Below, in pieces: positions 285 through 54,999 of a stretch of 64,000 nucleotides of DNA (its first letter is position 1; each line of letters opens with the position of its first letter). The DNA lies in the NCBI GenBank assembly GCA_977017645.1, contig OZ360225.1, positions 59,706,001 to 59,770,000 of the forward strand, read 5' to 3'. This stretch comes from Torpedo marmorata. Its lineage: Eukaryota. The notes under the pieces are model-generated. The model had not been told where the DNA came from and ran no database searches. It was given only the letters and a program-made list of their open reading frames with translations. A program made the position numbers and the translations under genes.

Positions 285-611
285 TGTAGTGGGCCGAGCA
301 GCCTCGCGGTTAGACGAGCCGAATTGCCGCCCCAGTCGGTCAGCACAAGATGGCATGGGCCCCCCTTCCCTTCTCAGGAGAAGCCTGCATTTAGCGACGC
401 GCATTGCCTAGGGGACGTCACCGCGCTGGGCAGGCAGTGGCTCCACAGCGTACTGACGTCACTTCCTGGCACCGACGCGCCGGGCTTCTGGTAATGCGTC
501 GTCCCAAGACAAGCAGCACGAGCTATTCAAATAATAAAAGACTTACTGGTTCACCCTCCAACCGTGTGGACAAACTTTATTTCGATAGCGCTGCCGTTTG
601 CAGCCGCTACA
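285..611 (+). repeat. 5' LTR of Gypsy element 1
   Basis: TGTAG...CTACA; direct repeat of 4489-4815; AATAAA near 533. Confidence 0.95.
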
Positions 612-612
612 G

Positions 613-626
613 TGGTGATCCCGACG
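613..626 (+). promoter_or_regulatory. Primer-binding site, tRNA-Trp type
   Basis: TGGTGATCCCGACG just after the LTR; one mismatch to the tRNA-Trp PBS TGGTGACCCCGACG. Confidence 0.8.
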
Positions 627-664
627 GTTCCAACATTTTTGGAACCCACCTCGAGCGCGACAAA

Positions 665-1439
665 ATGCAGAATGCTGCTACCGCTCCAGTCGCAATGGCT
701 GTGACCAATGCTGTGGGCATACATTTGCCGCCCTTCTGGGCCAACCAGCCCAGGAACTGGTTACATCTGCCCGAGTCACAGTTCCATCTCAGAGGCATTG
801 TCTCGAAAGACAACAAGTTCTGGCACATCATCATCACCTTGGACACCGCCACCACAGCCAAAGTAAGCTCCTTCGTGGAAAATCCTCCAATGGAGCGTAA
901 GTACGAACAATTCCGGCGTCTCCTCCTCGACTCCCTGGAGCTCAGCCGGCACGTGCGCGCCGTCCACATCCTAAACATGCAAGGCCTGGGCGATAGAAAC
1001 CCCTCCGAGCTCATGCATGAAATAGTGGCTTTAGCAGACGAGCACACAAACTGTTTCCTGTTGGAGGCCCTGTTCCTCTCCAAGCTACCGGTGCACGTTT
1101 CCTTGGCAATATCGAGAATGGATTTCAGCGTCCTGCACCTGGTAGCCAAGGAAGCAGACAGACCTTTCCGCACCCCGCAGCAGAGCTCCATACACGCGCA
1201 ACCAATCTACGCGTCGGCGCCTCCGGTTCAACCACGTACCAGGGTTTGCCTCCCCGCCGGGTCCACCAGCAATAGCCGCGGCCCAACCGCAGCGCCACGA
1301 GCGCTCAGACAAGCGGAGCGATTACTGTTTCTACCACCGCAGATGGGGCCGTAACGCCCGGCGGTGCGTTCCCCCATGCTCGTACCCCAATGCCAAGTCG
1401 AGCGCGGCGATGGGAAATGAACAGGCCAGCCACCGATAG
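665..1439 (+). pseudogene. gag: Gypsy gag, frameshifted
   Basis: HLPPFWANQPRNW N-terminal motif; C-terminal YCFYHRRWGRNARRCVPPC Cys/His motif lies in a different frame (from ~1323). Confidence 0.85.
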
Positions 1440-4400
1440 TGACCTCGACGGTTGGCACACATAAGGGCCTACTTTATCTAAGGGACCAGCAGACAAGGAG
1501 AGATTTCCTAGTCGACACGGGTGCGGAGATAAGCCTCATCCCGCCGACGTACTTCAAGCTCAAGCACAACGCCAAGGGCCTCCCCCTACAGACAGCCAAC
1601 AATTCTTCCATCCCAAGTTTCGGCACCCGTCTAGTCAAAATCCATGCCGTCGAAACTATTTTCCACTGGGAGTGTACGATTGCGTCCGTTGGACAAGCTC
1701 TACTCGGAGCCGATTTCCTCTGGGCACATGAGCTTTTAGTAGAAATGAACAGGTGGCGTTTGGTCAACGCTACCACGTTCCAGTCGAACCCCCTCACACT
1801 ATGGCAATGTTCCTTTTTGCCATTGGGCATCCACGCTCTAGACAGCTATTAATATGCCCTTTTACTGGCCAGGTACCCGTCACTGTTGGTCCCCAATTTC
1901 CATGACGCTAAGCCAGCACATGGCATGGAGCACCACATCAAAACCACCGGACCACCAGTGTACGCACGGGCATGGCACTTCCCGCAGGACAAACTTCTCC
2001 TAGCCAAGACCGAGTTTGCCGCCATGGAAGAGTTGGGAATTGTCCACCGTTCAAACAGCCCCTGGCGTCCCCGCTTCACATGGTCCAGAAGAACTCCGGC
2101 GGTTGGCGCCTGTGTGGTGACTACAGACGACTCAATGACGTCACGGTCCCCGACAGATATCCCATCCCACACGTCCAAGACTTCGCCACAAGGCTCCAAG
2201 GTTGCCGAATTTTATCCAAGGTGGACTTCGTCAAGGGGTACCATCAGATTCCGGTGCATACCAACGACGTCCAGAAGACGGCCATCATTACACCTTTCGG
2301 CATATTTGAATTCCTCCGAATGCCTTTCGGATTAAAAAACGCAGCCCAGACGTTTCAGCGTCTCATGGACATGGTCGGTAGGGACCTCGAATTCATCTTC
2401 GTCTACCTGGATTATATCCTCATCGCCAGCCCCGACGCCAACACACACAGAACGCAACTGACCCGCCTATTCGACAGGTTGTAGGAGTTCAGACTTACAG
2501 TGAACCCGGCTAAATGCCAATTCGGCCGGGAGACAATAGATTTCCTGGGACAACGTATCACCTGTGAGGGGGCCACGCCCCTTCCGGATAAGGTAGAAGC
2601 CGTCCAGCGTTTCCCTAGACCGAACACTGTCAAAGGCCTACAGGAATTCCTAGGGATGGTGAACTTTTATCATCGTTTCCTCCCAGGAGCAGCCACCCTC
2701 ATGCAACCACTGTTTGACCTCATCAAACTCGGCGACAAGGCGCTCCAGTGGACACACGAGGCCGTTGAAGCATTTCAGGCAACCAAAGCGGCACTGGCGG
2801 AGTCCACGTTTCTGGCTCACCCTGACTCTTCCTCCCCCCTGGCCCTTACAACAGACGCATTGGACAGAGCGGTCGGGGCGGTGCTTGAGCAGTTGGTCGA
2901 TGAGCAGTGGCGCCCCCTGGCCTTCTACAGCAAACATCTCCGAATGCCAGAACTCAAATACAGTGCGTTCGACCGTGAGCTGTTGGTCCTGTACCTGGCA
3001 AATTTACATTTCCGGTACATGTTAGAGGGAAGGGTTTTCATCGCCTACACAGACCACAAGCCACTGACGCATGCACTCAGCAAGGTCTCAGACCCATGGT
3101 CCGCAAGACAACAACGACACATCTCCTACATTTCCGAGTATATTACGGACATTCGCCACATCGCAGGCAAGTCCAACGTGGTGGCCGACGCTCTGTCCAG
3201 ACCGGCCATTTCTGCCACCTCCGGAGGACTCGACGTTGCCCAACTAGCAAAGGACCAGGCGGGGGATGCGGACGTCCAGGCCTACCGGACTGCCATCACC
3301 AGCCTGAAGGTTAGCGATTTCTGTCCTTCGCCGGGGAACCTGACTTTGCTGTGCGACATATCCACAGGTTTCCCCAGACCCATCCTACCCGCGACCTGGT
3401 GACGGCGCGTGTTCGATCAAATTCACGGCTTATCGCACCCTTCGATAAAGTCCATGGTCCGCCTGCTGTCAGACAAGTTCCTGTGGCACGGCCTCCGCCG
3501 CGACGTAACCCTATGGGCTAAGACTTGTTTGGATTGCCAACGCGCCAAAGTACACAGGCACACCAAGGCCCCGCTCCTGAGCTTTGCCCCGATGCAACGC
3601 CGTTTCGACCACGTGCACGTGGACATCGTGGGTCCGCTCCCCGTGAGCCAAGGTATGCTGTATCTATTCACAATAGTCGACTGTTTTACCCGTTGGCCAG
3701 AAGCGGTGCCCCTGCCCACGTGTGACACAGAGACGTGCGCCAGAGCCTTTTTGTCCACTTGATCGCACGTTTCGGCGTCCCGACCCACATCACCTCAGAC
3801 CGAGGAGCCCAGTTCACATCCTCGCTCTGGTCCAACCTGACCAAGTTCTGCGGCAGCCAATTACACCACACCACGGCCTATCATCCTCAGGCAAACGGAC
3901 TTTTCGAACGTTTTCACCGCCATCTGAAAGCAGCCCTGAAAGTTCGACTACAAGGCCCGAACTGGATGAACGAACTCCCATGGGTGCTGTTGGGAATCCG
4001 CACAGCGCCGAAAGAAGACCTACCAGCATCGTCCGCCGAAATAGTTTACGGTTCCCCGCTCACCATCCCGGGGGACATTCACTTCAACCCTCCAGGCCCG
4101 CAACCCAGTGCTTTAGACGTCCTCCACCGCTTGAGGGAGCAGATGGGTAAGCCTAAACCTCTCGCCACCTTCCCGGCACGGTGCTCCGCCCTGCCACGTC
4201 CCTGCGGACCTACAGTCCACCGATTTTGTTTTCGTCCGCAGAGGACAGCAAGGAACACCCCTGCAATGCCCCTTCCAAGGCCCATTCAAGGTACTACATC
4301 GCGACGGCGTCATTTTCACCCTGGACATTGGCGGGCGGCAGGACATGTTTACCATTGACCGCCTCAAGGCAGCACATTTGGACTCAGGTCAGCCGGACCT
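1421..4400 (+). pseudogene. pol: Gypsy pol (protease, RT, RNase H, integrase) broken by stops and frameshifts
   Basis: FLVDTGAEIS protease; WRLCGDYRRLN, MPFGLKNA and VYLDYILI (mutated YLDD) RT; TDALDRAVGAVL and YTDHKPL RNase H; HGLSH..CLDC, VHVDIVGP, ITSDRGAQF, HPQANGLFERF integrase. Confidence 0.95.
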
Positions 4401-4477
4401 ACTGCCCCAAGTCAGACACAGAGGCTGCCCGCCTAAAGAATGTACGGGAACTGGCTCAAAGGGTGGCAGCGATTCTT

Positions 4478-4488
4478 GGGGGGGGTGG
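4478..4488 (+). promoter_or_regulatory. Polypurine tract
   Basis: GGGGGGGGTGG directly before the 3' LTR. Confidence 0.8.
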
Positions 4489-4815
4489 TGTAGCGGGCCG
4501 AGCGGGGGCGCGGTTAGACGAGCTGAATCGCTGCTCCAGTCGGTTGGCACAAGATGGCGCGGGCCCCCCTTCCCTTCTCAGGAGAAGCCCGCGTTTAGCA
4601 ACGCGCGTTGCCTAGGGGATGTCACCACGCTGGGCAGGCAGTGGCTCCACAGCGAGCTGACGTCACTTCCTGGCACCGACATGCCGGGCTTCCGGTAGTG
4701 CGTCGTCCCAAGGCAAGCAGCGCGAGCTATTCAAATAATAAAGGACTTACTGGTTCACCCTCCAACCATGTGAACATATTTTATTTCGATAGTGCTGCCG
4801 TTTGCAGCCGCTACA
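4489..4815 (+). repeat. 3' LTR of Gypsy element 1
   Basis: Direct repeat of 285-611, roughly 10% diverged by eye. Confidence 0.95.
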
Positions 4816-11560: not shown

Positions 11561-11721
11561 TTTTGGTTCCTGAGAGGAGGTGTAGGGACAGGTTGCAAGG
11601 GGTGAGGGGGGGGGGGAGGTGGGGGGTGTACGTTGAGACAGGAATGGCTGGGATAGGATAAGTGAACCAGGAAGTCACGGAGAGAACATTCCCTATGGAA
11701 GACAGAACGGAGTGGAGAGGG

Positions 11722-12345
11722 TGTAGCGACTTCGTCCAATAAAAATAGTCGCTTGGAGGCTAAGTTAGATGTTTGTCTGCGACGCGTTTTCATTCATTTA
11801 CCAACAAAGTCCAAAATGTTCAAAAAACCTTTATTTACATTAGACTTGCAGTAATCTTCAGACTTTAATATAAACATTTCTTGAAATGATGTAAAATAAT
11901 GTAAAAGGATCTAAAACAATGTAAAAAGGTTATAAAAAGTGTTCCAAAAGTATTAAACGGTCGACAGAGATTGTCGACATCTAACTCACCCTCCTCAAGT
12001 TTTCAACTGCAAACTCGCGCGGGGGAACCTCTTTAAAAGAAGATCCCACCCGTGCATGCTCCGTGGCTACACGCGCTGGCCCCGGCTCCAACCGCTCGCC
12101 GCCGGGGCCGAGACAACCGCGCACGCAACCACCCAGTTCATCAGTGCGCATGCGCACTGATGGATACGCCGGCCCCGGCCGAAGCCGCCGCCGCTGGCTA
12201 ACCACGCATGCGCCGCCACGCTCCAGCTCTGCAAGCGGCGGTGGCACTCGCGCGTGCAGCCTTTGGAAGAGGCCCACGGACCCCGGGACACCGCCGGCGC
12301 CCGCGGCCAAAACAACAGGCAAGTAATGAGCCTATGGCTTTTACA
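11722..12345 (-). repeat. 3' LTR of BEL/Pao element
   Basis: TGTA...TACA ends; CpG-rich half; direct repeat of 16743-17366. Confidence 0.95.
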
Positions 12346-12560
12346 CCGGCCCCTAATTATTATAATGAGATGTAACGTCTCTAATAATAATTACATAACT
12401 ATAACATTATAATAACAATAACCATATAACATTCGAACAAATATACAAATCCTTTCTCCTTTCTTCACAAGACCAGAGTTTACCATAACTCTGGATGAAC
12501 AAAACTCTGTAACCTGAAATATACAACAACAAATAAAGTCAGTTTACATTTATCAAAGTT

Positions 12561-12646
12561 CCTCCTTTGTCTTGAAAAGTCTCAATAATTTTTCCAAGTA
12601 ACCAGGAGTTTCTTGAAGTCGAATTATCCATAATAATCACAATGCC
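12561..12646 (-). pseudogene. Remnant of the BEL/Pao integrase C-terminal tail (DUF5641-like)
   Basis: Minus strand translates to GIVIIMDNSTSRNSWLLGKIIETFQDKGG, like the conserved BEL tail GDIVLIVD..PRNSW.LGRI.E.FPDK.G. Confidence 0.7.
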
Positions 12647-12688
12647 TCTCCAAAGTTCTTTTATCTCTATAATCTTCGAGTTAAAACG

Positions 12689-15600
12689 TTAACAAGTAAA
12701 CTTCAAATCTTCCTCAGATAAAATAGATACAGCTTTTCTTTTGAATTTAACACAAGGCACTTCTTCAACATGTTGTTTCACTCCATTTCTTCTTTCAGTA
12801 TTCCACCTCTCATGTGAAGAATCTAAACTCTTAGAACTAGAATTTGAACATCCATCTGATCCCCCCGATTTTAAACAGGTCTGTTCAACCACTCTGGTTT
12901 CCACGGCTCTCTCCTGCAATTCTAAATCCAACCCCGCAACTTTCAATTCGGTCTCAGTTCCTTCCGAGAAATTAATACTTTGATCTGAAGTCAAAATATC
13001 ATGTGTTACATTGATATTTCCATTGTCAATCCTGTTGCGGCAAACTTGAAATGTTTTAATTTCTTCGTCTTGTTTGTTACATTTCTGCAATGCAGTATCA
13101 CATTCTTCCTGCATTGTTAATTGTTTTGTGTTATTAACCAATAACTTGTTCTCTTTCAAAACATTAATCTCTTCCTCCAACCTTTTACATTTTGATAATG
13201 CTGAATCTCTTTCCTTAATAACTGTATTCATTTCTTCAGCAGTTATTCTTTTCTTCCGCTTTCTGACTTTGCGAGTTTTACTTACAATTAAATCTTTCTG
13301 TTTACTGTTTTCTTGATTATCTAATATTTCCAATTCCCCTTTCAACATTTTGTTCTCTGAATTCAATTGCATTAAATTATCATTCACATTATTCTTTATT
13401 CCATCAGCACAATTTTCTGTGTTTTCCAGTTTTACATCACATTGTAATCTTTCTTCGTTAGCTTTGTCTGTTGTAATCTCTGAACTACAAAATCTACATT
13501 CAGATTTGTTTTCAGTCACTTGTTTTATTCCTGTATTGGATTCAATTACACATGAATGATCAATAGTATTATTTGCAACATCTTCTAATACTTCACTTTC
13601 ATCCATTTCTGACGAAATTAATTCCTTCAATGTTGTTTTAAATACCATTGATTTATTTTCACATTGATCTGTTTTCTTTTCTTCAAAAGTGATTTTCTTA
13701 TTCACAGTTTTTTGCTCTTCGCTTAACTCTTCAACTTTCTCAACCGAAATTCTATTAATATTTATCGCCAACTGTTCCTGAGCAATATCATTATTTCTTT
13801 CCAGTGGTCCATTGATTGTCCAACCAAACTTGGTTCTAATAGCGTAAGATCCATTCCTTTTACTCTCTATTACTTCTTTCCGTTCCAAAACCTTTGGCAC
13901 ATCTGAACCAATCAGCATTTCTATCTCAGAATTAATTTCAGGTAAATAAACCTTCCACAGATAAGCTAAATGATGGATATCCCTTTGATGAGGAATATTT
14001 CCTTCATTCACAGGCATAGTCTTCTGAGTATATACACTTGGAAGATCACAACATTTTTTGTCATCCAATCCAGCAACCTCTAAGCCTGAAACAATGTTAG
14101 TTTCAACAACCTTTTCTTGTCCCATTGTTCTTAACATAATTCTTGATCTTCTTCCTTGAATATTAAGTTTATTCATTAGTCCTTCCGTGCAAAAGGATGC
14201 AGTGCTGCCTGGGTCTAAAAATGCATATGTTTTTACTATTACATCCCCCTTCTTGGCCTTGACTTGTACAGGCACTATTGAAAGTTTGCAGTTATTCACA
14301 CCGGCCCCAGTAAGACCACTTGTCTGAACCGAGGTTATAACATTATTTTCTGTTGTTTCCTTTTCCAATTCCTTGTTTCTGTAATGGATATGCAAAATTC
14401 TAGGATGTTTCAAATTGCATATGTTACAATTAATTCGCTTCTCGCAGTTCTTACTGATGTGTCCTTTACACAAACAGCTAAAACATATTCCATTTTCCTT
14501 TAAGAAAGCGATCTTTTCCTTATGTTCCTTCTTTTCCAATCGTAAACACATTTCCAAAGTATGTCCACCCTTGCAGAACAAACAACTCTTTTTATCAGGC
14601 AAACTTTCCTTTTCCTTATTTACTTTGTCATTTTCTTTACTTATAACTGACACATTAGTAGCAAAAGTACTCCTTTTTACTTTCGGACTAGACTGTGTGT
14701 TAGACTTCTTTACATCTTTGCCCATTGAATTATCTCTGCCATTTCCATATAGTGGATCTGTTTCAACGTACACCCGTCGTTCAAGAAAATTTACCAAATC
14801 CTTTAAGGTACTCTTTCGACCGTAATCTACTTGTAAATCACAAGCCAAATTTCTCCATCTATCCCATAACTTGTAAGGTAATTTTTCTAAGATGATTCGC
14901 ATATTACTATGCACTTCAAGCTCACGAATATTATCGATTTCTTCCATAGCATTACAACATCCTCTTAAAAACAGAGTATATTCTAGCAGAGCCTTTACAT
15001 CATTTTGTTTTATTGATGTCCAATTAAGAGCTTTATCCATATAAGCTAAAGCGATTTGATGCTTGTTGCCAAAATATTGTTCCAGTAAAGCCTTAGCTTT
15101 GTCTAATCCTCTTTCTGAAGACATTTGTTTACAACTCTTTACCAGTTCTTTTGGATGTCCCTTTGTGAACATTTCCAAATAATAAAGACATTCATCACGA
15201 TCTTGACATTTATCTTCAATATTGCGTTTGAAAGATCTCATAAATGATTGATATTGAAGTGGATCACCATCAAAGGTTTGTATCTCTTTTTTGGGTAAAG
15301 AAGAGAGAGACTGTAACTGAAACAATGATGCAGCAATTTCATTTTGTCTTTCCTTGGATGACAATACATTGCTCTGTTCACTGTTTCTTGTTGCATGCAA
15401 TGTATCTGGAAACCTCACTGGTATAGTTTCTTCCATATTTCTGATTCTTGACTCAAATAACGAAGAAGCTGCTTCGTTCGACCGAACCCAAGCCGCAGCC
15501 TTATCTTCAGATGTTACCATTGGTACATGTGACTCGTTACCAATATGCTCTTGATAGGTTTGTCTTTGTATTTGCAAATCTTGTATCCTTGGTTCTACAA

Positions 15601-16363
15601 TATCTATCCTTTTGGTTGGTTTCTTTTCCTGTGACTCTTTTTTTAAATATGACCTTTTATTATCAGACACTTTAGATAATTTACTTCGAGCACCAAATAC
15701 TAATGAGCCTTCTATTGCTTTCTTTTCTGCCTTGGCAATAGCAATGTTTGCTTCCAGCTCCTGCTGTTCCTTTTTCTTTCTTAGCTGCTCTTGTCTCTTT
15801 CTTAGTTGTTGGTTCAGCCTCAGCTGCTCCTCCTTTAGTTCCTCCTCCTGTTCTTCTAAAACATGTTTATCCTTAAGAAATTCTTGTTGTGCAAGAAGAG
15901 CGGCCAATCTAACATCAATCTTTGTAGGTGACGATGCAGAACTTGAAGTACGAGAAACTCTGGAGCTCGAACCAGAACTTCTTTTGCTTCTCCTGCTTTC
16001 AGCATTTGAGACACTGTCACTTGCTTGTATTTCGTCCTGCAGTTCATATGCTGTCTTCATACTTACCTCTTTATCCAATTCGAATTGTATATCCTTTGCA
16101 TCATTTGTTGACACAATTTCAGCCATTTCCAAGTTATCTTCTTGTTCATTTAATGAAGCTGCCTCTTCATCCTTTGCCAGCTTCAGTCTTTCGATAAGAA
16201 CCCTTTTATTTCCTCTTATGTCCTTTTTCAGTCGCTTCAATTCTTCTTTAATATCCGTAACCTTCATGTCTTCAATACGTTGGTCCACAACAGCAACATC
16301 AGCGGTTGCTGCGTCAGCTGCTGATATATCAGTAGCTGCTGTATCAGAGGCTGCTGCTGCCAT
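12689..16363 (-). CDS. BEL/Pao Gag-protease polyprotein with N-terminal SAP domain and atypical coiled-coil C-terminal insert; no RT, RNase H or integrase
   Basis: Uninterrupted ORF (probable ATG at 16363; open frame extends to 16402). SAP-like IEDMKVTDIKEELKRLKKDIRGNKRVLIERL; capsid-like FDGDPLQY (DUF1759-type); three Cys/His knuckles CLFCKGGH, CFSCLCKGH, CNICNLKH; protease AFLDPGSTASF; YAIRTKFGWTINGP. Confidence 0.9.
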   Translation of the reverse strand: MAAAASDTAATDISAADAATADVAVVDQRIEDMKVTDIKEELKRLKKDIRGNKRVLIERLKLAKDEEAASLNEQEDNLEMAEIVSTNDAKDIQFELDKEVSMKTAYELQDEIQASDSVSNAESRRSKRSSGSSSRVSRTSSSASSPTKIDVRLAALLAQQEFLKDKHVLEEQEEELKEEQLRLNQQLRKRQEQLRKKKEQQELEANIAIAKAEKKAIEGSLVFGARSKLSKVSDNKRSYLKKESQEKKPTKRIDIVEPRIQDLQIQRQTYQEHIGNESHVPMVTSEDKAAAWVRSNEAASSLFESRIRNMEETIPVRFPDTLHATRNSEQSNVLSSKERQNEIAASLFQLQSLSSLPKKEIQTFDGDPLQYQSFMRSFKRNIEDKCQDRDECLYYLEMFTKGHPKELVKSCKQMSSERGLDKAKALLEQYFGNKHQIALAYMDKALNWTSIKQNDVKALLEYTLFLRGCCNAMEEIDNIRELEVHSNMRIILEKLPYKLWDRWRNLACDLQVDYGRKSTLKDLVNFLERRVYVETDPLYGNGRDNSMGKDVKKSNTQSSPKVKRSTFATNVSVISKENDKVNKEKESLPDKKSCLFCKGGHTLEMCLRLEKKEHKEKIAFLKENGICFSCLCKGHISKNCEKRINCNICNLKHPRILHIHYRNKELEKETTENNVITSVQTSGLTGAGVNNCKLSIVPVQVKAKKGDVIVKTYAFLDPGSTASFCTEGLMNKLNIQGRRSRIMLRTMGQEKVVETNIVSGLEVAGLDDKKCCDLPSVYTQKTMPVNEGNIPHQRDIHHLAYLWKVYLPEINSEIEMLIGSDVPKVLERKEVIESKRNGSYAIRTKFGWTINGPLERNNDIAQEQLAININRISVEKVEELSEEQKTVNKKITFEEKKTDQCENKSMVFKTTLKELISSEMDESEVLEDVANNTIDHSCVIESNTGIKQVTENKSECRFCSSEITTDKANEERLQCDVKLENTENCADGIKNNVNDNLMQLNSENKMLKGELEILDNQENSKQKDLIVSKTRKVRKRKKRITAEEMNTVIKERDSALSKCKRLEEEINVLKENKLLVNNTKQLTMQEECDTALQKCNKQDEEIKTFQVCRNRIDNGNINVTHDILTSDQSINFSEGTETELKVAGLDLELQERAVETRVVEQTCLKSGGSDGCSNSSSKSLDSSHERWNTERRNGVKQHVEEVPCVKFKRKAVSILSEEDLKFTC

Positions 16364-16742
16364 TTTACTCGTCTTGTTCCTCTTTCCTTCAAGCATACAC
16401 AATACCAGCCAAACAACAGTCCCTAATGGACTAGCGGCAGCAATTCCAATCTGTGTTCTTACTTACTAAAGATACACAGAAGGAGTCCACAGACTTATGC
16501 CAACCACTTCAAATGACTGTAATGTGCTGCAATCCACAAACGAGTTTTTTATCTTCTTTCCTTCTATTTTCTGTTCCAAACAGCCAGCTCTTTGTTGACT
16601 ATGTAGATTGCGGTGACTTCGATCCAACGTTGGTCACCTGGAGGCTAAGTGTGGTCCTTATGTATCTGGAAACCTCACTGACCCTCCTGGCTTCTCCTTC
16701 CTATCCTATTTTCCATTTCAGCGACCTTTCCTGTCGACTTAA

Positions 16743-17366
16743 TGTAGCGACTTCATCCAATAAAAATAGTCGCTTGGAGGCTAAGTTAGGTGTTTGTCTG
16801 CGACGCGTTTTCATTCATTTACCAACAAAGTCCAAAATGTTCAAAAAACCTTTATTTACATTAGACTTGCAGTAATCTTCAGACTTTAATATAAACATTT
16901 CTTGAAATGATGTAAAATAATGTAAAAGGATCTAAAACAATGCAAAAAGGTTATAAAAAGTGTTCCAAAAGTATTAAACGGTCGACAGAGATTGTCGACA
17001 TCTAACTCACCCTCCTCAGGTTTTCAACTGCCGACTCGCGCGGGGGAACCTCTTTAAAAGATTATCCCACCCGCGCATGCTCCGTGGCTACACGCGCTGG
17101 CCCCGGCTCCAACCGCTCGCCGCCGGGGCCGAGACAACCGCGCACGTAACGACCCAGTTCATCAGTGCGCATGCGCACTGATGGATACGCCGGCTCCGGC
17201 TGAAGCCGCCGCCGCTGGCTAACCACGCATGCGCCGCCACGCTCCAGCTCTGCAAGCGGTGGCGGCACTCGCGCGTGCAGTCTTTGGAAGAGGCCCACGG
17301 ACCCCGGGACACCGCCGGCGCCCGCAGCCAAAACAACAGGCAAGTAATGAGCCTATGGCTCTTACA
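16743..17366 (-). repeat. 5' LTR of BEL/Pao element
   Basis: Direct repeat of 11722-12345. Confidence 0.95.
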
Positions 17367-17499
17367 GAGGGGAAGATGCAACGTGGTGGGATCGCTTTGC
17401 AGCTGGTAGAAATGATGATGTGCAGGGTGTGGAGGATGGTGGGGTGAAAGGTAATGACTGAGGAAACTCTACCTCTAGTGGGAGGTCCTCATCTCGATA

Positions 17500-24980: not shown

Positions 24981-25732
24981 ATCTTTTTGGGAAAGGAAGA
25001 AGCATAAGAGTCTTGTTGTCCTTTGATAATTATTCTACGTGCCAGACTATGCCAACACTTTTATCACACACCTTGTGTTTACAAGTCACTATAAGAGTCC
25101 TGCCAAATATTTTTGGAAGGATCGCACTCCTTTAAAAATAAATTAAAGATCTGTTATATTTCTCTTCATTTCCATCTCTTAGCTCAAACCATGCTAACCT
25201 ACAGAAGTACCAGGCATGGGCCAATAAGTGCAAGGTCCAAATAAGTGCCAAGCAATCACCATCTCCAATAGGAAGCAGTCAAAGCTCTGATGCTGACACA
25301 CCATCAGATCTGTAACCAGATTCACCACCGTTTTTAGTTACTGCTGGGACAAATGGGTCACAGTGGTCAGCAACTCAAATGGACTCAAATAACTTCATCT
25401 GATCTATTTAAGTTATTTGGTGATATCTTATTTAAAATTAAATGAATAATATTAACAGGAGATTATGAAGTCTCTAAAAGTCTCTAAATTCTGAGTCTTG
25501 ATTGTCTCAATTTTGTTGGTCTGGATTTTCCTCCCCCATTGTTTGAATTCTGAGACTTTCTGATATATCCTGCTTCTGCCTTTTCTGATTTTTCCTTGAA
25601 GAAAGGCTCAGGCCCGAAACGTCGGCAATATATCTTTGTCTCCTATTGATGCTGGAAAGACCGGTTGAGTTCCTCCAGCATTTCGGTGTGTTTACTATAA
25701 TCAAAGTGTAGCCTATCATGTTTCACTCAGTT

Positions 25733-26474
25733 CAGATTTCAGATCAGCTTTCAGATTTATTGTCAGAGTACATACATACGTCACATACAACCCTGAGATT
25801 CTTTTTCCTGTGAGCGCAGCAGAATTACCACTAATTGGTAGTGCAAAAAGTAAACTGTACACAGTGTTAACATGTAAACAATCAAAAGACCTGCTAACAG
25901 GTAACGAATGAAACTGAAAATGGAACTGACTGTGCAATACAGAGAGAGCAAAGAAAATCAATAAAGTGCACGAGTAAGAGTCCTTAAATGAGTCTCTGAT
26001 TTGACTTTGTCGTTGAGGATTCTGATGGTAGAGGGGTAGCAGCTGTTCCTAAACCTGGTTGTGTGAGTCATGTGGCACCTATACCTCTCTCCTGATGGCA
26101 GCAGTGAGAACAGAGCGTGCGCTGGGTGGTGTGGGTCTTTGATGATTGCTGCTGCCCTCCGACAGCAGTGTTCCCTGTAGATGTACTCAATAGTGGGGAG
26201 GGTTTTGCCAGTAATGTCCTGGGCTGTGTCCACTACCTTTTGGAGGGCTTTACGCTCAGGGGTATTGGTGTTCCCATATCAGACCGTGATGCAGCCGGTC
26301 AGCATACTTTCCACCACACATCTGCAGAAATTTGCCAGGGTTTCTGGTGTCATACCAAACCTCTGCAAGCTCCTGAGGAAGTAGAGGCGCTGACGTGCTT
26401 TCTTCATGATGCCAATGGTGTGTTGGGTCCAGGAAAGATCCTCCGAGATAGTGACTCCCAAGAACCTAAATTTG
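25733..26474 (-). mobile_element. Rex1/Babar-like LINE 3' fragment nested in the PLE
   Basis: FRFLGVTISEDLSW...KARQRLYFLR; DPHHPAHALFSLLPSG; TSD CTCAGTT (25726-25732, 26475-26481); CTGAA-type tail repeats. Confidence 0.85.
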
Positions 26475-26507
26475 CTCAGTTGATCCACTTCGTAATCTCT
26501 TCAAGGG

Positions 26508-29500
26508 ATGCCTGCCCTGAAGAAGTTCTCCTCCTCTCTTCGAAGGGAGTTCTGTGTGAGTCTCTCTCACTGCTCCCCATCTGTACTGCCTGATGCTCTC
26601 AAGCTCTACGACCACATTCTCACCCAGACTCGCTTCCACAGCCATGTGTCTTTCCTGGCTACTTGCCTCCACCGCCATCTGGTGCCACATGGATTCCAGT
26701 TTGGTTCCTAGCCTTCCAGTTTGGCCCCCACCGGGATCTCAGGTACCTGAGCTGCATTGACTCTTGCTCTCTTCGCTTCTCCCGCCGTATACTACGGACT
26801 ACCCTCAGCTCGATGCGCAGGTACCAACGGACCCTCGCTCTCTCGCTACCACAGCTCCGTACCTCACTCACCATGATCTGCCACGGACCTCTCATACACT
26901 TCATCCTCCGCCAGATCCACGCATTCAAACGCTGATTCTACGCACACCTGGCATCCATCAAGGATCGGAAGCTCGTGTCCCTGGAGACTGTCGCATCGAG
27001 GACCCCCCACCTGGGTTTACAGGACCGAGCTCCTGATGCGGGTCTCTACCTTTGCCCCGGTGACCTACAGCACGGAGCGCCTGACACGGGTGTCCACCTT
27101 GGCCTCGGTGACCTTCAGGATCAAGCCTCCGACATGAACTTTCACCCTGAACCCGCTGGCCACGAGTCTGGGCTTCACACGCGGGTCTCCATTTCGGCCC
27201 CAGCGACCTACAGGATCGAGCCTCCGACATGAACTTTCACCCTGAACTCGGCGACCGACAGAACTGAGCTTCAGACGCGGTTTCCACCTTGGCCCCTTCG
27301 ACCAACAAGACCAAGTGTCCGTCACAAACTCCCACCCTGGCTCCGGGAGCAAACAGGCCTCTCTCTCTCCACCCTCTAACTTTCCCAATCCTCCCCATCC
27401 TCCCTTGGACCCTTCCTACCCTCCACCTCCTGATCCACCCCATCCTCCTCCCCTCCCCTACACCCTCCACCCCATTGAACATCCCCCTAACCCCTGCCTG
27501 GTCTTCACCATCACCTCCGACCTCCCCCTCTCGGAGACTGAACACTCTGTCCTCAGTAAAGGCCTCACCTTCGTCTCCCTTCATCCACACCTTAACGAGT
27601 TCCACGCATGCCATGATGTTGAACTCTTCTTCCATCGGCTCTGTCTCCATGCTTACTTCCATAATCATGATTCTCCACCCCCCACTACAGATCCCTTCTC
27701 CCGCTTTAAAACATCTTCCTCCTCCTGGACACCTCGTTCCGATCTTCTACCTGCTCTGGACCTTTATATTTCCAACTGCCACCGTGACATCAACCTTATC
27801 GAGTTCACTACTCCCCTCACTCATTCCAATCTCACCCCCTCGGAACGCCTGGCCCTCCACTCTCTCCACACCAATCTGAACTTCACCCTCAAACCTGCAG
27901 ACAAGGGTGGCGCTGTTGTGGTCTGGCGCACTGACCTCTATCTGGCTGAAGCCAGACGACAACTCTCAGACACCTCCTCTTACTTAGCCCTCCAACAGGA
28001 CCCCACCAAACTCATCAAACCACTGTATCACGCACCATCTCTGAACTCATCACTTCCAGTCACCTCCCTGGCACGGCCTCCAACCTTATTGTTTCCCAAA
28101 CCCATACTGTCCATTTCTACCTCCTACCCCAGATCCACAAACCCAACTGTCCCGGCAGACCCTACGTGTCCGTGTGCTCCTGCCCCACCGAATTGGTTTC
28201 TGCTTACCTTGACTCTGTTTTGTCCCCCCTGGTCCAGTCCCTCCCCACCTACATCTGGGACACTTCACATGCATTCCATCACTTCAACAACTTCAAGTTC
28301 CCTGAACTCGATTGCCTCATATTTACCATGGATATACAATCCCTATACACCTCTATCCCCCATACTGAAGGCCTCAAAGCCCTTCCTTTCTTTCTGGACA
28401 ATAGAACCAACCAGTCCCCCTCCACCACCACCCTCCTCCGGCTGGCACAACTTGTCCTCACCCTCAATCATTTCTCCTTTGACTCATCCCACACTCTCCA
28501 GGTCACAGGGGTAGCCATGTGCACCCGCATGGGCCCCAGCTATGTCTGCCTTTTTGTTGGCTACGTGGAGCAATCCATGCTGCAAGCCTACACAGGCAAG
28601 GCCCCTCAACTCTTCCTCCACTACATCGATGACTACTTTGGTGCTGCCTCATGTACCCATGATGAGCTCGTTGACTTCATCCACTTCGCTACCAACTTCC
28701 ACCCCGACCTCAAATTCACTTGGTCCATCTCTAGCAATACTCTCCCTTTCCTCGATCTCTCTGTCTCCATCTCAGGAGACAAACTCTCGACAGACATCTT
28801 CTATAAACCCACCAACTCCCACAGTTACCTCGACTACACCTCTTCCCACCCTGTCCCCTGTAAGGATTCCATTCCATTCTCTCAAATTCCTCCATCTCTG
28901 TCGCATCTGCACCCAGGATGAGGACTTCCATGCCAGATCATCAGAGATGTCCTCCTTCTTCAAACAATGTGGCTTTCCCTCTACCACCATCAACTCGGCA
29001 CTCACCCGCATATCCTCCATTACCCGCACATCTGCCCTGGCCCCCTCCGCCCCCATGTGCAACAAGGACAGGATTCCTCTTGTCCTCACCTACCACTCCA
29101 CCAGCCTCCACATCCAACGCATCCTCCTCCGCCATTTCCGCCACCTACTACGTGATCCCACCACTAGACACATATTCCCCTCTCCTCCCCTCTCCGCCTT
29201 CCGCAGGGACCCCTCTCTCCGTGACTCCCTTGTCCACTTCTCCCTCCCCACCAATCGTCCCCTTGGGACCTACCCCTGTGACGGCAGGAGATGCTCCATT
29301 TGCAACCACACCTCCTCCCTCAGCACCATTCGGAGCCCCAAACAGTCTTTCCAAGTGAAGCAACATTTCACTTGTGAATCTGCAGGGGTCAGCTACTGCA
29401 TTCGGTTCTCCCGCTGTGGTCTCCTCGACATCGGAGAGACTGGACGCAGACTGGGAGATTGCTTTGTTGAGCACCTCGGCTCTGTCTGCCACAATAGCGT

Positions 29501-29682
29501 GGATCTCCCAGTGGCCACCCATTTCAATTTCTCCATCCCATTGCCTTGCTGACATGTCTATCCATGGTCTCATGTACTGCCAGACTGAGACCACCCGTAA
29601 ATTGGAGGAACAACACCTCATCTTCCGACTGGGCACCCTCCAACCGGATGGCATTAATATCGACCTCTCTGGCTTTCGTTAA
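26508..29682 (+). pseudogene. PLE ORF (RT and GIY-YIG endonuclease), frameshifted
   Basis: VLSKGLTF, KPADKGGAVVV, MDIQSLYTSIP, GVAMCTRMGP, YIDDYF, PFLDL, YKPT; YCIRFSRCGLLDIGETGRRL GIY-YIG. Confidence 0.9.
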
Positions 29683-31949
29683 AACCCCCCCCCACCCCCT
29701 TCTTCCCCCGTCGTCTCTCCATTCCCTGTCTCCTTTCGCACAGACATGATTAATTCTACCTAGTCCCTTATCATAGCCAATTAACACCTTTTGTTGGTCT
29801 GGATTCCTCCCCCATTTTTGAATTCTGAGACTTTCTGATATATCCTGCTTCTGCCTTTTCTGATTTTTCCTTGAAGGAGGGCTTAGGCCCGAAACGTGGG
29901 CAATATATCTTTGTCTCCTATAGATGCTGAAAAGACCGGCTGAGTTCCTCCAGCATTTTGGTGCGTTTGTCTCAATTTACACACCAGTTAACTAATTTAC
30001 TGATAAAATATTTTCTTAAATCGCCTGGTCTGCAAGGGAAAGCGTAATGGAGTAAAAATTAGGTAAAAAAAAAGGTAAAGGTTCCATTATTGTCACGTAA
30101 TACTACATTTAGAATGTAACATACATGAAATTCTTTAATTTTTGTCTACTGTAAGGCAGACAGAGTCTCTGTTACTTTCACGAAATACACCCCTTTCTTG
30201 AAGTGTCCAGTAATTAAAGTAGAACAGAGCACTCAAATTGGGGTATGATACTCAACCATTACTATATTTAAAGCAAGTAGTCAAGAATAAATTCTTTCTT
30301 CTGTGTTCTTTGTGGTGAATGTTAACTTCCTGGCTCCCGAAAGCTTTACCCAGCACTTATTGTCACATGTACCAAAATAAAGTGAAAAGTTGTGCTTTTC
30401 ATGCTATCCAGGCAAGTTAACCTGTACCAGTACAAAAGGTAGTGTGAGAATAAAATTAAAGGTGCAGGAGATAGTGTTACAATAAAAAAAAAGGTGCAAG
30501 ATATAGTGCCACAAGACAAAAGGCAGAATATAGTGCTAAAGAGAAAAATACAGTTGAACAAGGCAAGGCATCATCCTGTACTAATGAAAAGTCTGTTCGA
30601 CCTCCTATCCTTGAATCTGGAGGTGCGTGTTATCAAACTCATGTATATCAGCAAGGCACCAGTTATAGAATATATAACCATATAACATTTACAGCACAGA
30701 AACAATGTGCAGAGAAACTCACCAACCGCCTGATGAGAGCACTTGCTAAAACCTTCGTGGTTTTACGTTATCTGAGATGTAGCAATTTGTTTGATTTGCA
30801 CCTCAGCCTCTTCACAGGGGAAGGAGAAAAGATTTATTATAGAAAGCACTGATGCAATACACCAAGCTCTTCCCTCCTTTATCATTGGCTGGGAGGACCA
30901 GCATGGAAGTCAATGGAACTGAATTTTAGAAACAGGGCTCAACACGAGTACAGGACTATTTTTTAAGATTAGCATGCCCAACAGAGGACGAATTTCACCC
31001 TCACTGTTTCCATGGGGAGTGGGTAATGAAAGAACACAGATTTAAGATGAATGAGAAAAGAACTTGGAAAAGAATCCAAGATAGGGAGTGAGAAGAAATC
31101 TTTCTAAGCTTAGAGCCGTTCAATCTGGAATCCACTGCTTGAAAATGTAGTGGAAGCTGTTTCAACAGTCACTTTCAAAAGGGAATGGGATATATACCAG
31201 AAAAAGATAAGTGCAGAGTGCGCGAGAAAGGGGATGTGATGAGTTAGACGAATTGGATGGGCATAAGGTGCTGAATGGCTTGTGTTATAAGAGTTCATTC
31301 AATAAAGGAGTACCAGAAACAAGATGGGGGAGAATGTAAAATGTATGTGAAGAAAGACTTTCCTTTTCCTGTGGTGAAGGATTTTAAAAGCCTGAAGATA
31401 TTTATAAACTCAGATGTTCCTGCACAAATTAATTAGCAAGATTAGTTGACTCAAGGGTTGTGGTTGAGGGAGATCTGTGATGCCCCTGGTGCTATATGTT
31501 GGTGATTGTTGTAAATGCTTTACATATTCACACATCATGTGAATAAATCAAACCAGTTGAAAATAATCTTGATGCAAAACTTTAATCGTGATGATGGATC
31601 TCTCAGTCACTTCGTTGGTGCATGTGGTAGTCCTGTCCCTGATTGTTTTCATTGTGTACAGTCTTCCTGTGGGTTGTACAGGTTTATGAAATTATCCCTG
31701 CAATGGTAAGGATTCATTAAAGGATTTACCATGCAATTTCTTCCTCAAGTGCATAGAATTATAGAACCTCATATCATGAAAGGCTGAGCCAGTTCTTTGA
31801 AAGCGCTTCGATTTGAATCCACACCCACGTTTCTTACTCATCTTAATGCAAATGAGTCATCTTCAAACATGAGCCTGTTACCTTTGGAAACCAATTTCAT
31901 CACCCTTTCTTTCATATGGTTCATTCCAGGACATAACAACCCTCTAGAT

Positions 31950-42958: not shown

Positions 42959-43423
42959 AAAACAACATCTATAAGCTAATTTTATTGTGGAACACAGGTT
43001 CGCCAGTCAGATCTGATATCCAGAGATCTTCAAATCCTTAGACCCACAGTTTTTATATATGGGCTCCATATTTTCAAAAATAAATGATATTTGTTACGTA
43101 AATTATAAGTAATTTTTTCAAGTGGTATACATGAACGAAGTTCTGCATGCCATCTTTCTAACCCTAAATCTACATCAGATTTCCATGTAATAGCAATGCA
43201 TTTCTTTGAAACAGCTAAAGCAATTCGCAAAAATTCTATTTGATACATATTTAATCTCATTTTAATAAAAATTCTTTTAATATCTCCAAACAACAATATC
43301 ATAGGATCCATTGGGAGTGTAATTCTTAATACTTTATCTAAAAACTTTTTAACTTTCAACCAGAAATCATATATCTTTGGACAGAGCCACGTAGAGTGTA
43401 CAAAAGAACCGTCCTCTCTATTA

Positions 43424-44723
43424 AAAAACACAAATGCTGGAGAAACTCAGCAGGTCAAACAATGTCTTTTATGTAGCAAAGGTAGAAATACATAACCGAC
43501 GTTTCGGGCTTGAGCCCTTCATCAAAGTATGAGAAAATGCCGGTAGGCGTCCGAACAAAAGAGTGAGGGGGGAAGGGGGATGGCAAAGGCAGGAGATGAT
43601 AGGTGGAGAAAGGAGGGAGGGGACAGCAGCAAAGAGGGGGAGGAGGGATGGCTAGGTAGCTGGAGAAAAACAGGAAGGACAGGTGAGGGGGGAGGGGGAG
43701 GGGAAGGGAACGACAAGCAGGTTTAGTGGAAAGCAGAAAAGTCAATGTTAATGCCATCTGGCTGGAGAGTGCCGAGACGGAATATGAGATGTTGTTCCTC
43801 CAATTTGCGGGTAGTCTGGGTGGGATAGTACATGAGGCCATGGACAGACATGTGAGTGTGGGAGTGTGACCCGGAATTGAAATGGTTGGCTACTGGGAGG
43901 TCGCTGTTGTTGCGAACGGAGAGGAGGTGCTCAGCAAAGCAGTCTCCCAATCTACGACCGGTCTCTCCAATGTAGAGAAAGCCACAAATGGAGCACCGGA
44001 TGCAGTAAATAAGTTCTCTGGATGTACAAGTGAAGTGTAGTTTCACTTGGAAAGCCTGTTTGGGGCCCTTGACCGTGGTTTGGGGGGAGGTGTGGGTGCA
44101 GGTGTTGCACCTCCTGCGGGCACAGAGGAAGGTGCCGGGGGTGCGATGGGTGGGGAGGGATGAGTGCACGAGTGCTTTGCTGAGCACCTCCTCTCCGTCC
44201 GCAACAACAGCAACCTCCCAGTAGCCAACCATTTCAATTCCGGGTCACACTCCCACACTCACATGTCTGTCCATGGCCTCATGTACTATCCCACCCAGAC
44301 TACCCGCAAATTGGAGGAACAACATCTCATATTCCGTCTCGGCACTCTCCAGCCAGATGGCATTAACATTGACTTTTCTGCTTTCCACTAAACCTGCTTG
44401 TCGTTCCCTTCCCCTCCCCCCTCACCTGTCCTTCCTGTTTTTTTCCAGCTACCTAGCCATCCCTCCTCCCCCTCTTTGCTGCTGTCCCCTCCCTCCTTTC
44501 TCCACCTATCATCTACTGCCTTTGCCATCCCCCTTCCCCCCTCACTCTTTTGTTCGAACGCCTACCGGCATTTTCTCATACTTTGATGAAGGGCTCAAGC
44601 CCGAAACATCGGTTATGTATTTCTACCTTTGCTACATAAAAGACACTGTTTGACCTGCTGAGTTTCTCCAGCATTTGTGTTTTTTACTTCAACCACAGTG
44701 TCCACAGATTTTCGTGTTTTACT
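43424..44723. mobile_element. Inverted pair of PLE 3' ends inserted as one unit
   Basis: Arms 43424-43941 and 44173-44686 are near-perfect reverse complements; 12-bp TSD TCCTCTCTATTA (43412-43423, 44724-44735); GIY-YIG YCIRCSICGFLYIGETGRRL on minus. Confidence 0.92.
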
Positions 44724-45725: not shown

Positions 45726-47076
45726 CTAACCATCCAAGGTTCCTATCCTGCCTTTATCTCTACAATTTCCTGTTGAAAAATGGACATTGAGCAACTTAAA
45801 CTTAAAACTTATACCAGCGTTTGTACAGTTGAGTACTGTTAACATTCATTATCTGGGCTCATAAGAAGAAAGTTCCATCAGAATAGAAGCAAATGTAAAA
45901 TGAAAGAATGAAGTTATTTAACACTGTCCCTGGCAGTGGATTATTTAGTTATGTTTATTCATTTACTCTGGCACATAGTTAATCCAGATTCAAACAAGAT
46001 TTAAAGATGTTTTATGTTATCAAGGTACATTTGTTTGCATTAGCAAGCATTTCCATTTTAATCTGGTTCTGTTTAAAATAAATGTGTTTATTGAACATAA
46101 CCTAGTGTCAATAGGAAACCTGAATGCAGTTGCCCAGGAAACGCAAGACTATATTAGTGATGATCAGACACTATAGATCATCTGTCACCTGTCGACCATC
46201 TCATCCTTCATTGGTTTGAGAGAAGCTGAAAGGTGATGTGGTGCCCCTGACCCAAATGTCTTGAGATTATATCAGACATTACTCAAATCATTACTGGCAG
46301 CAAAACTAAAACCAAGCTCTGGTAAGCAGGTGCTGGGTTAAGGTGTGAAGAGGCATGTGAGTGCCATAAGCTCTTTAAGGACTAGATGGGCCAAACGGCG
46401 TGCTTCTGTGCTGCAAATTCCACATCAAAATGACAGGTAACCTGCTCCAGATCATGCAGATTATGGAACTTTGTGAGTGCAGAAAAGGTGCCCTATCTCC
46501 TCACTTAGAATAGGGAAACCCTTGAAAGCTTTCAAAGCCTAAAGTATGTGAAGTACATTAAGTAAATCCAGAGCCATAAATAATATGCTGGAGGAACTCA
46601 GTCGGTCAAGCATCATCAAGTTTTGATGGAGGGTTCTGGACCAAAACATTGACTATTCTTTTTCTCCCACTGATGCTGCTCGACCCGCTGAGTTCCTCCA
46701 GCTGATTGTTTTTTGCTCCAGATTCCGACATCTGCAGTCTCTCGTGTGTTCCAGGTAAATACAAAGTTCTTTCTTTCTCACCATTCTTCACCAATGTGAC
46801 TTTGCACATTTTAACCCTATTTCTGTACACCTTCCTGATAGTTTCACTGGAAAGGATAGGTTCTTGAGAGGCAGAGCTAGCTCAGAGAGCCAAATGGCCT
46901 GGTCCTCCTCCTATTTTCTATCTCCATATTAGTTAGACGACACATGATATTTATTGATTTATTTATTATTTTCATGTGTACCAAGAGACAATGACAAGAT
47001 CTCTTTTGCTTGCCCTTCAAAGTAAAGAGTCGCCACCCTCCAGTGCAATTTTGCAAAAAAAAGGAGAAAAATAAAT

Positions 47077-54710: not shown

Positions 54711-54724
54711 TGGTGTCAGAAGTG
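54711..54724 (+). promoter_or_regulatory. Primer-binding site, tRNA-Leu type
   Basis: TGGTGTCAGAAGTG directly after the 5' LTR. Confidence 0.75.
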
Positions 54725-54768
54725 TGTGAGTAAGTAAGAAAAGGCAATAGTTCCCATATAGATATTTA

Positions 54769-54980
54769 AATGTCTCCTGCCTTTCCCACCCCCCTTCCCC
54801 CCTCACTCCTTTGTTCGGACGTCTGCCGGCATTTTCTCATACTTTGATGAAGGGCTCAAGCCTGAAACGTCGGTTATGTATTTCTACCTTTGCTACATAA
54901 AAGACACTGTTTGACCTGCTGAGTTCTCCAGCTTTTGTGTTTTTTACTTCTACCACGGTGTCTACAGATTTTCGTGTTTA
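54769..54980 (+). mobile_element. Short PLE 3' tail inserted at the start of Gypsy-2 gag
   Basis: Near identical to 44510-44720; 16-bp TSD CCCATATAGATATTTA (54753-54768, 54981-54996). Confidence 0.9.
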
Positions 54981-54999
54981 CCCATATAGATATTTATTC

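Follow-up and report, generated by a model that had tools for sequence, protein, structure and literature searches.

The element considered here lies on the minus strand of a 64-kb stretch of Torpedo marmorata DNA (the window), at positions 11722–17366, and is derived from a BEL/Pao retrotransposon. Its single open reading frame (ORF) encodes a SAP domain, Gag and an aspartic protease and then, in the place of pol, runs into a C-terminal extension that is almost certainly captured host sequence, originating from the genes BRCA1 and MIPOL1, with a part of the MIPOL1 sequence standing in non-collinear order. In our opinion, the best explanation, and a probable one, is a non-autonomous BEL/Pao element into which host RNA was captured. 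The first-pass annotation of this DNA had proposed a Pol-less BEL/Pao-derived element with a chimeric Gag-protease ORF that is more than a simple deletion derivative, and this description holds, pol having been replaced by host fragments. It had also noticed non-standard domains at both ends of the ORF; the SAP-bearing N-terminus is indeed foreign, and the host origin of the C-terminus was missed.

The extension was searched for by a full HMMER scan of residues 915–1257 (numbering of the stop-to-stop translation P0001) against 1.84 billion proteins. The scan gave 29 matches, of which the best was BRCA1, while the remaining 28 all belong to a single family, MIPOL1, with sharks first; the 10 matches looked up by name comprised one BRCA1, eight MIPOL1 (one of them via its UniRef name) and one uncharacterised lamprey member. 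The BRCA1 fragment (13286–13720; all features of the element are on the minus strand) is ~145 amino acids long, occupies residues 915–1059 and corresponds in its native frame to positions ~196–358 of skate BRCA1, just past the RING region, so that it contains neither RING nor BRCT. Its match to the skate Rhinoraja longicauda has an E value of 4.8e-19, with 79 of 163 columns identical (48%).

The MIPOL1 sequence, ~134 amino acids in total and closest to sharks, also stands in its native frame and consists of two pieces. Piece 1 (13034–13279, residues 1062–1143) corresponds to Heterodontus MIPOL1 350–447 with in-frame deletions of 1 and 15 amino acids and ends at an exon end. Piece 2 (12878–13033) corresponds to MIPOL1 188–211 followed by 241–266, with an in-frame deletion of ~29 amino acids between them; residues 1170–1194 align to MIPOL1 241–265. 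Both halves of the BRCA1 fragment and the three MIPOL1 blocks each scored above 300 of 300 shuffles, and a profile built from 30 named MIPOL1 proteins matched in the frame of the ORF only (E 1.2e-22 and 5.7e-4); where this profile match reaches 13462, it overlaps the stronger BRCA1 match. Piece 1 crosses two exon borders, one before CK-LE (from a frog model) and one after ALK (from shark isoforms, inside the 15-residue deletion). The captured pieces appear to be free of introns, which suggests an RNA template, the borders being deduced from proteins. At the join between protease and BRCA1 and at the ends of the deletions, similarity of the kind expected at switch points was seen as protein-level likeness only. 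Of 8 shark-only MIPOL1 residues the element has 4, and of 7 bony-only residues it has 1; together with the skate and shark matches, this makes a cartilaginous fish the probable host.

Several other readings of the extension were rejected. An initial word-index search with the tail yielded nothing among 4,356 candidates and was misleading, because MIPOL1 fell under its 691-amino-acid limit and BRCA1 was overlooked by the index; HMMER recovered both. The tail helix at 13258–13142 resembled a displaced copy of the N-terminal helix of Gag (10.8 bits, where shuffles reached 7.0 at most; 5–6 of 1,000 shuffles as good), and this was ruled out by the far higher MIPOL1 scores of the same segment, which is a warning about coiled-coil matches in general. 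A divergent RT (reverse transcriptase) in the C-terminal region, the finding against which the first-pass annotation had itself set its reading, was not detected by the BEL profile; the likeness of the last 50 codons to an RT was equalled by 2 of 100 shuffles against one protein and by 105 of 500 against the profile. The last 62 codons of the ORF (12692–12877) carry a faint ungapped likeness to the start of a BEL RT, which is not significant, those same 105 of 500 shuffles being as good. In the ESM Atlas, MIPOL1 came first for the tail with a score of 0.79, which is a lead only. Folded alone as a single sequence, the tail had a mean pLDDT (predicted local distance difference test) of 49.9, mostly below 50, with helices predicted confidently where the BRCA1 piece ends and in MIPOL1 piece 1.

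Piece 2 is upstream of piece 1 in the host gene and downstream of it in the element. At the putative back-splice junction codon (13034–13036, codon 1143), a downstream exon end seems to be joined, with no residue between, to an upstream exon start. The exon end is placed after RLYY, where the isoforms Cetorhinus X5 (next residue Arg) and Heterodontus X2 (next residue Ser) diverge, and the exon start before RVENRG, where a single Ser distinguishes Heterodontus X1 from X2, as from a tandem acceptor; both borders would fit phase 2, that is, after the second base of the codon. For the 15–24 amino acids following the junction, the best register is exactly that exon start, which ranks first of 522–531 registers in Heterodontus and first of 346–355 in Cetorhinus, while offsets from −4 to +4 around it and the linear continuation score negatively. 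At the protein level, and with borders taken from shark isoforms, this is a non-collinear join of a donor to an upstream acceptor, and all captured MIPOL1 sequence falls within MIPOL1 188–447, with nothing from outside the presumed circularised exons. A non-collinear exon junction is described as the defining mark of retrocopies derived from circular RNA (circRNA) in PMC4897178.

There are a number of points that count against this interpretation. With a window of 10 residues, the exon-start register ranks only 3rd and 10th; the post-junction segment is identical at 7 of 24 positions, and its free alignment score is reached by 64 of 300 shuffles. The coincidence with exons was spotted after the alignment had been seen, and the exon map, like the junction microhomology, rests on proteins of other species. 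The MIPOL1 tree leaves the origin of the fragment unsettled, with all forks open. Moreover, a MIPOL1 model of the frog Discoglossus (P0125) contains an exon-sized unit repeated four times, so that a non-collinear order could arise without a circle. The case is carried by the significant collinear upstream block together with the meeting of both diagonals at the donor and the acceptor, the chance of which we roughly estimate at <1%. On this sequence evidence, a true exon-to-exon non-collinear junction is quite likely, and a circular RNA as the source of the MIPOL1 piece is favoured by a small degree.

The captured pieces differ from their host counterparts by ~43–52% in amino acids, against 2.9% between the long terminal repeats (LTRs) of the element. 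Over 94 anchored MIPOL1 columns (two of the eight named proteins were dropped for want of an anchor), the element agreed with sharks at 53–54, sharks with each other at 79, and sharks with bird or lungfish at 64–66; in the MIPOL1 tree, the branch of the element measured 0.61 against 0.09–0.12. Invariant MIPOL1 columns were kept in 36 of 53 cases, compared with 114 of 125 highly conserved columns in Gag-protease (Fisher P 2e-4). This far larger divergence, taken with the contrast in constraint, points to drift for much longer than the age of the LTRs, and the host fragments appear to have evolved with little constraint on their residues, so that the capture would be old and the insertion young. 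The term satellite lineage, which the first-pass annotation had also used, would rest on this long divergence, and replication as a family after the capture is likely.

In simulated neutral drift of 0.15–0.25 substitutions per site, the 281 host-derived codons remained free of stops in 9–50 of 3,000 runs. The four joins and three deletions are all in frame, which would occur by chance once in 2,187. Because such stop-free drift is rare and the joins and deletions are all in frame, selection for an open frame may have acted over many helper-dependent rounds of replication. Against this it should be said that the MIPOL1 part alone stayed stop-free in 170–425 of 3,000 drift runs, and that the frame argument is inflated, as out-of-frame captures are harder to see, though the other frames were searched too.

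The state of the ORF since the present insertion is a separate matter. It runs from the ATG at 16363 to the stop at 12689 (1,224 codons, residues 34–1257), without stops or frameshifts and with an additional in-frame ATG at 16396, in agreement with the ~1220 unbroken codons previously noted. The earlier suggestion that this intactness is a sign of selection is not supported: at the observed LTR divergence 1.65–1.83 nonsense changes are expected, with a probability of none of 0.16–0.19, and when indels are assumed at 5–10% of substitutions, the probability of an intact ORF is 0.01–0.04. It is true, as had been stated, that the remaining LTR elements in the window are broken; they are also older, their LTR-like repeats being 89.9%, 92.4% and 93.4% identical, so that the contrast between intact and broken frames is confounded with age. 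In a neighbouring Gypsy element, whose LTRs diverge by 7.6%, there are 5 stops in 1,193 codons, and scaling gives a similar rate. The intactness of the ORF since insertion is unremarkable and is no evidence of selection by itself.

Pfam recognises only SAP and DUF1759 in the ORF. With our own BEL profile, which was made from 50 full-length relatives among the 120 matches listed and applied without filtering in all six frames, Gag-protease is recovered, as is an integrase tail of 33 residues, and nothing in between. Neither Pfam nor this profile found an RT, RNase H or integrase core, as the first-pass annotation had reported, and the sequence of RT, RNase H and integrase that follows the protease in BEL/Pao elements is lacking. 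Because these domains are missing, the element is to be classified on its sequence as a BEL/Pao derivative, not an autonomous member, and it needed borrowed RT and integrase for its present insertion. The DUF5641-like C-terminal remnant of integrase (12545–12643; E 1.6e-8 with our profile, 17.1 bits in Pfam, below the cut-off of 23.1) had been described as out of frame; it is actually in the frame of the ORF, past its stop.

The capsid domain (DUF1759 region, 14759–15295; Pfam E 3e-5) has an AlphaFold pLDDT mostly above 90, in a model that covers residues 375–900 (mean pLDDT 81.4) and for which 50 of the 120 relatives were aligned with the element. The predicted capsid resembles the PNMA2 capsid (Z 8.5, root-mean-square deviation (rmsd) 5.1, 164 residues aligned) and dArc1 (Z 7.6), and the predicted protease resembles the Ddi1 retropepsin (Z 10.1, rmsd 3.1, 105 aligned) and HTLV-1 protease (Z 8.9); Foldseek E values for the Gag-protease model were 1e-3 to 1e-2. 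A triple Cys-His box (14390–14584) has the forms CX2CX3HX4C, CX2CX4HX4C and CX2CX3HX4H, and the aspartic protease (13802–14299) has intact motifs of the LLDxG type, FLDPGS (14221–14204), and LIG, within LIGSD. Both the box and the protease motifs match the definitions given in PMC554778.

Residues 132–936 share ~50% identity with Pao-type polyproteins, those with a name being from teleosts. In a tree of the Gag-protease core with 37 of the 120 relatives, which included no named reference BEL/Pao elements, the element falls into a subclade with Simochromis P0007 and five other proteins (support of 99 in the Shimodaira–Hasegawa-like approximate likelihood ratio test) on a longer branch, 0.45 against 0.11–0.29. 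The kept 114 of 125 highly conserved columns may be compared with 117–124 in the six closest relatives; judged by these columns, Gag-protease appears constrained and slightly relaxed. A ray element is thereby nested in a group of BEL proteins with teleosts as the named sources, for which horizontal transfer or missing chondrichthyan sampling could be the explanation. In four other BEL proteins of 1,060–1,290 amino acids (P0036, P0044, P0039 and P0023; the first two form a sister pair in the tree), Gag-protease continues without a change of frame into patches of RNase H or integrase; these are internally deleted forms with one frame kept.

At the other end, a foreign N-terminus (16070–16363), ~100 residues long, replaces the N-terminal region of ~145 amino acids found in relatives, and BEL homology begins at residue 132 of P0001. 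It contains the SAP domain (16276–16181; Pfam 29.3 bits, cut-off 23.9), and no SAP-like match was found in any of the 120 relatives (best E 1.1). A donor was found neither among 1,539 candidates, which is weak evidence, nor in the ESM Atlas, and the structure search gave generic SAP structures only (MKL1, E 5e-4). A likeness to SAFB/SLTM may be presumed, another transposon being an equally possible donor.

The anatomy of the element, the host origin of its tail, the non-collinear order and the contrast in constraint may be regarded as shown; on the template-switch model, the following mechanism may be proposed. Host RNAs, BRCA1 mRNA among them, would have been packaged together with the element's RNA in a particle, where RT switched templates onto them and back, and these switches would have displaced RT, RNase H and most of integrase. 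The MIPOL1 template may have been a circular RNA of ~260 codons (188–447) that was entered in the middle of the circle and copied over the back-splice junction. Over a long period the chimera would then have replicated by means of the Gag and protease that it encodes, which probably favour the packaging of its own RNA, and an autonomous BEL helper would have lent it RT and integrase. Selection might have preserved Gag, protease, SAP and the openness of the tail, and not the residues of BRCA1 and MIPOL1. The tail could serve as a translated stuffer, as a frame open nearly to the 3' LTR would avoid a long 3' untranslated region and RNA decay; the protease may cleave the tail off, and SAP may tether particles or cDNA to chromatin. 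The template-switch model itself, including multiple switches and a Pao element with two parent genes, is documented for animals in PMC5131818.

The same capture could have taken place with a different origin of the MIPOL1 order, from a linear RNA whose exons were repeated or scrambled (by tandem exon duplication or trans-splicing) or through two separate switches. The repeated exon-sized unit of the Discoglossus model speaks for it, as do the statements that non-collinear junctions arise by other routes (PMC4897178) and that multiple switches occur (PMC5131818). Two switches, however, would have no reason to hit a splice donor and an in-phase acceptor without a gap, all MIPOL1 sequence lies within 188–447, as a circle predicts, and comparisons of the shark isoforms show no repeated unit; this alternative, the foremost form of which is a tandem exon repeat, is appreciably less probable, though it has to be taken seriously. 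As to the role of the tail, we lean slightly towards a stuffer rather than a functional part. That it works for the element, as a coiled-coil particle scaffold or as a decoy for host partners, would be consistent with the frame preserved across a long divergence, with the confidently predicted helices in an otherwise poorly predicted tail, and with similar fusions in gene models of tilapia (a DnaJ fragment) and medaka (a coiled coil). Such a function is rather doubtful, since only 36 of 53 invariant MIPOL1 positions are kept, three deletions occurred, the BRCA1 piece lacks RING and BRCT, and most of the tail has a pLDDT below 50.

The possibility that the insertion was fixed and its chimeric protein taken into use by the host, which the first-pass annotation had put forward as candidate domestication, agrees with the intact ORF, with the capsid, protease and SAP motifs and with the CpG-rich LTR. 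Both LTRs and the target-site duplication (TSD) are nevertheless intact, the LTRs being 97.1% alike, intactness by chance has the probability of 0.16–0.19 given above, the divergence of the host pieces is older than the insertion, and the constraint on them is relaxed, so that domestication is very unlikely. Still less credible is a one-off chimera, dead on arrival, or an assembly artefact. It would account for the single copy, as no second copy or solo LTR was found within the window and no relative with this tail or SAP in the protein collections searched, which also weighs against a replicating lineage. A fresh chimera would hold near-exact host sequence, and the ~43–52% divergence of the host pieces with their in-frame deletions, set against LTRs 2.9% apart and a perfect TSD, speaks against this. 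Capture of host RNA by a non-autonomous BEL/Pao element that went on replicating is the reading which we retain.

Gene capture by LTR elements (Bs1; insect Pao and BEL), elements with Gag plus protease, and circRNA-derived pseudogenes are already known. Neither this element nor this combination was found in the literature listings searched, which do not take in Repbase or Dfam. The captured host mRNA makes it a gene-capturing element of the type of maize Bs1, which is described in PMC5131818 and PMC13317346 as a multi-copy LTR element with common switch points, its one chimeric ORF containing pieces of several unlinked genes of the host. Here, too, partial host coding sequence from more than one parent stands inside one internal ORF between LTRs. 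As far as those descriptions go, the present element differs in being a vertebrate BEL/Pao derivative that kept capsid, triple zinc knuckle and protease and has a foreign N-terminal SAP; both of its identified host pieces are in the native frame and one is non-collinear, whereas in Bs1 one of three is out of frame. LTR-mediated retrocopies of animals (Tan et al. 2016, PMC5131818; Pao BATUMI, mosquito BEL18) likewise contain, instead of a part of the internal ORF, partial host mRNA from more than one parent without poly(A). Loss-of-function changes are reported there in 14 of 21 older cases, in contrast to the diverged pieces considered here, which all stand together with Gag in a single open frame. 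The main text of that paper does not contain the word 'circular'.

The circRNA-derived pseudogenes described by Dong et al. 2016 (PMC4897178), with 33 mouse copies of circRFWD2, similarly have a non-collinear junction, an association with LTRs and no poly(A). The LTR link is there an enrichment in the flanks of the copies, the mechanism is termed unknown and other routes are warned of, while in the present case the junction is inside a complete element with LTRs and TSD and is in frame with Gag. Plant TR-GAG elements, according to PMC6022998, have LTRs and Gag with or without protease and no RT or integrase, as is the case here apart from the integrase remnant past the stop; this remnant, the animal BEL/Pao origin and the host gene fragments distinguish our element from them. 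Family context for BEL/Pao is provided by PMC12440569, and the words 'shark' and 'non-autonomous' do not occur in the available text of PMC3118150. Teleost BEL/Pao polyproteins such as P0003 and Simochromis P0007 have ~50% Gag-protease identity to the element and differ from it in their own N-terminal helical region, the lack of SAP and a full pol in the ORF.

Acutely transforming retroviruses are defective and helper-dependent and have gag fused to spliced host sequence that replaces pol. Compared with them, the element has no envelope gene, its host pieces appear relaxed, not activated, and there is no sign of a cellular effect. Four diverged Oreochromis gene models from UniRef (P0031, P0179, P0180 and P0181) contain Gag-protease, short stubs of RT and RNase H, a fragment of DnaJ (Pfam E 1.4e-18) that resembles DNAJB11, and the C-terminal half of integrase, with junctions common to all four, and possibly form a second host-capturing BEL family. 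In two proteins of the medaka Oryzias sinensis (P0014 and P0183, UniRef), a coiled-coil tail follows Gag-protease in the post-protease position that the host pieces take in our element. The DnaJ piece is lacking in other tilapia models of that cluster, so the DnaJ and coiled-coil parallels may be annotation artefacts.

A much bolder idea, which we regard as speculative and rather improbable, is that vertebrate BEL/Pao satellites act like gene-transducing defective retroviruses, repeatedly swapping pol for host RNA, including circular RNA, keeping the fusion translated over long periods and using the stolen parts (SAP as a chromatin anchor, the coiled or disordered MIPOL1 and BRCA1 segments) for replication. 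If it were true, we would have in this element, complete between its TSDs, the record of how a back-spliced circle was copied within an LTR particle and came to be translated, and the tilapia and medaka parallels would be independent. The route of circRNA retrotransposition was left open in PMC4897178; an in-frame back-splice inside a complete LTR element would point to template switching in the particle, which thereby becomes testable from genome and RNA data alone. Exon shuffling of the Bs1 type would be extended to a vertebrate BEL/Pao lineage, and the element might be considered as a fossil of a circular RNA in cartilaginous fish. It also offers a test case for why Pol-less elements keep their frame open, for RNA stability or for protein function, with the host parents as an outgroup.

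The element is bounded by a perfect 5-bp TSD, GAGGG, at 17367–17371 on its 5' side and 11717–11721 on its 3' side, within the range of 4–6 bp indicated for BEL/Pao in PMC12440569, and its LTRs have the ends TG...CA, as in BEL/Pao. The 5' LTR (16743–17366) and the paired 3' LTR (11722–12345), each of 624 nt, differ by 18 mismatches, 14 transitions (7 at CpG) and 4 transversions, without indels (Kimura two-parameter distance 0.030); the previously reported ~18 differences and perfect TSD were confirmed by this count. The first 330 nt of the 5' LTR are rich in CpG (GC 0.67), and AATAAA stands at 16856–16851. The U3 side of both LTRs (17037–17366 and 12016–12345) is a CpG island with an observed/expected ratio of 1.14 against 0.43 in the window as a whole, and a perfect palindrome of 24 nt is situated in it at 17160–17183.

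Between the 5' LTR and the ORF (12689–16363, in the order SAP, Gag, protease, BRCA1 piece, MIPOL1 pieces and 62-codon end) there is a leader of 379 nt (16364–16742), in which no primer-binding site was recognised. It holds a 21-nt exact copy of ORF sequence, 16680–16660 being repeated in Gag at 15420–15400 on the same strand (E 6e-4), which suggests, perhaps, a trace of further template switching inside the element. In a check for self-priming and a primer-binding site, an 8-nt complement between leader and LTR was equalled by 45 of 500 shuffles, and self-priming was rejected as this is not significant. No tRNA genes were found, and no Rfam family came near its cut-off. A short purine-rich run abutting the 3' LTR (12346–12360) was recognised by inspection at the position of a polypurine tract.

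Other repeats of the window are of different kinds. A Gypsy element at 285–4815 on the plus strand, with LTRs 89.9% identical over 327 nt, is older, and stops and frame changes interrupt both its gag and its pol. The Gypsy element at 54537–59110 (plus strand), whose five stops in one frame were mentioned above, has LTRs 92.4% identical over 171 nt. At 25511–29968 (plus strand), direct repeats 93.4% identical over 183 nt flank a C-rich region, which shows a weak match to RT (E 5e-4); inside this pair, at 27036–27345, lie short tandem repeats. A near-perfect inverted repeat at 43422–44686, with arms of ~520 nt that are 98–99% complementary and a spacer of 225 nt, may represent a fold-back element or a non-autonomous DNA element of young age. 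Finally, a broken long interspersed nuclear element with an endonuclease domain is located at 47026–50278 on the plus strand.

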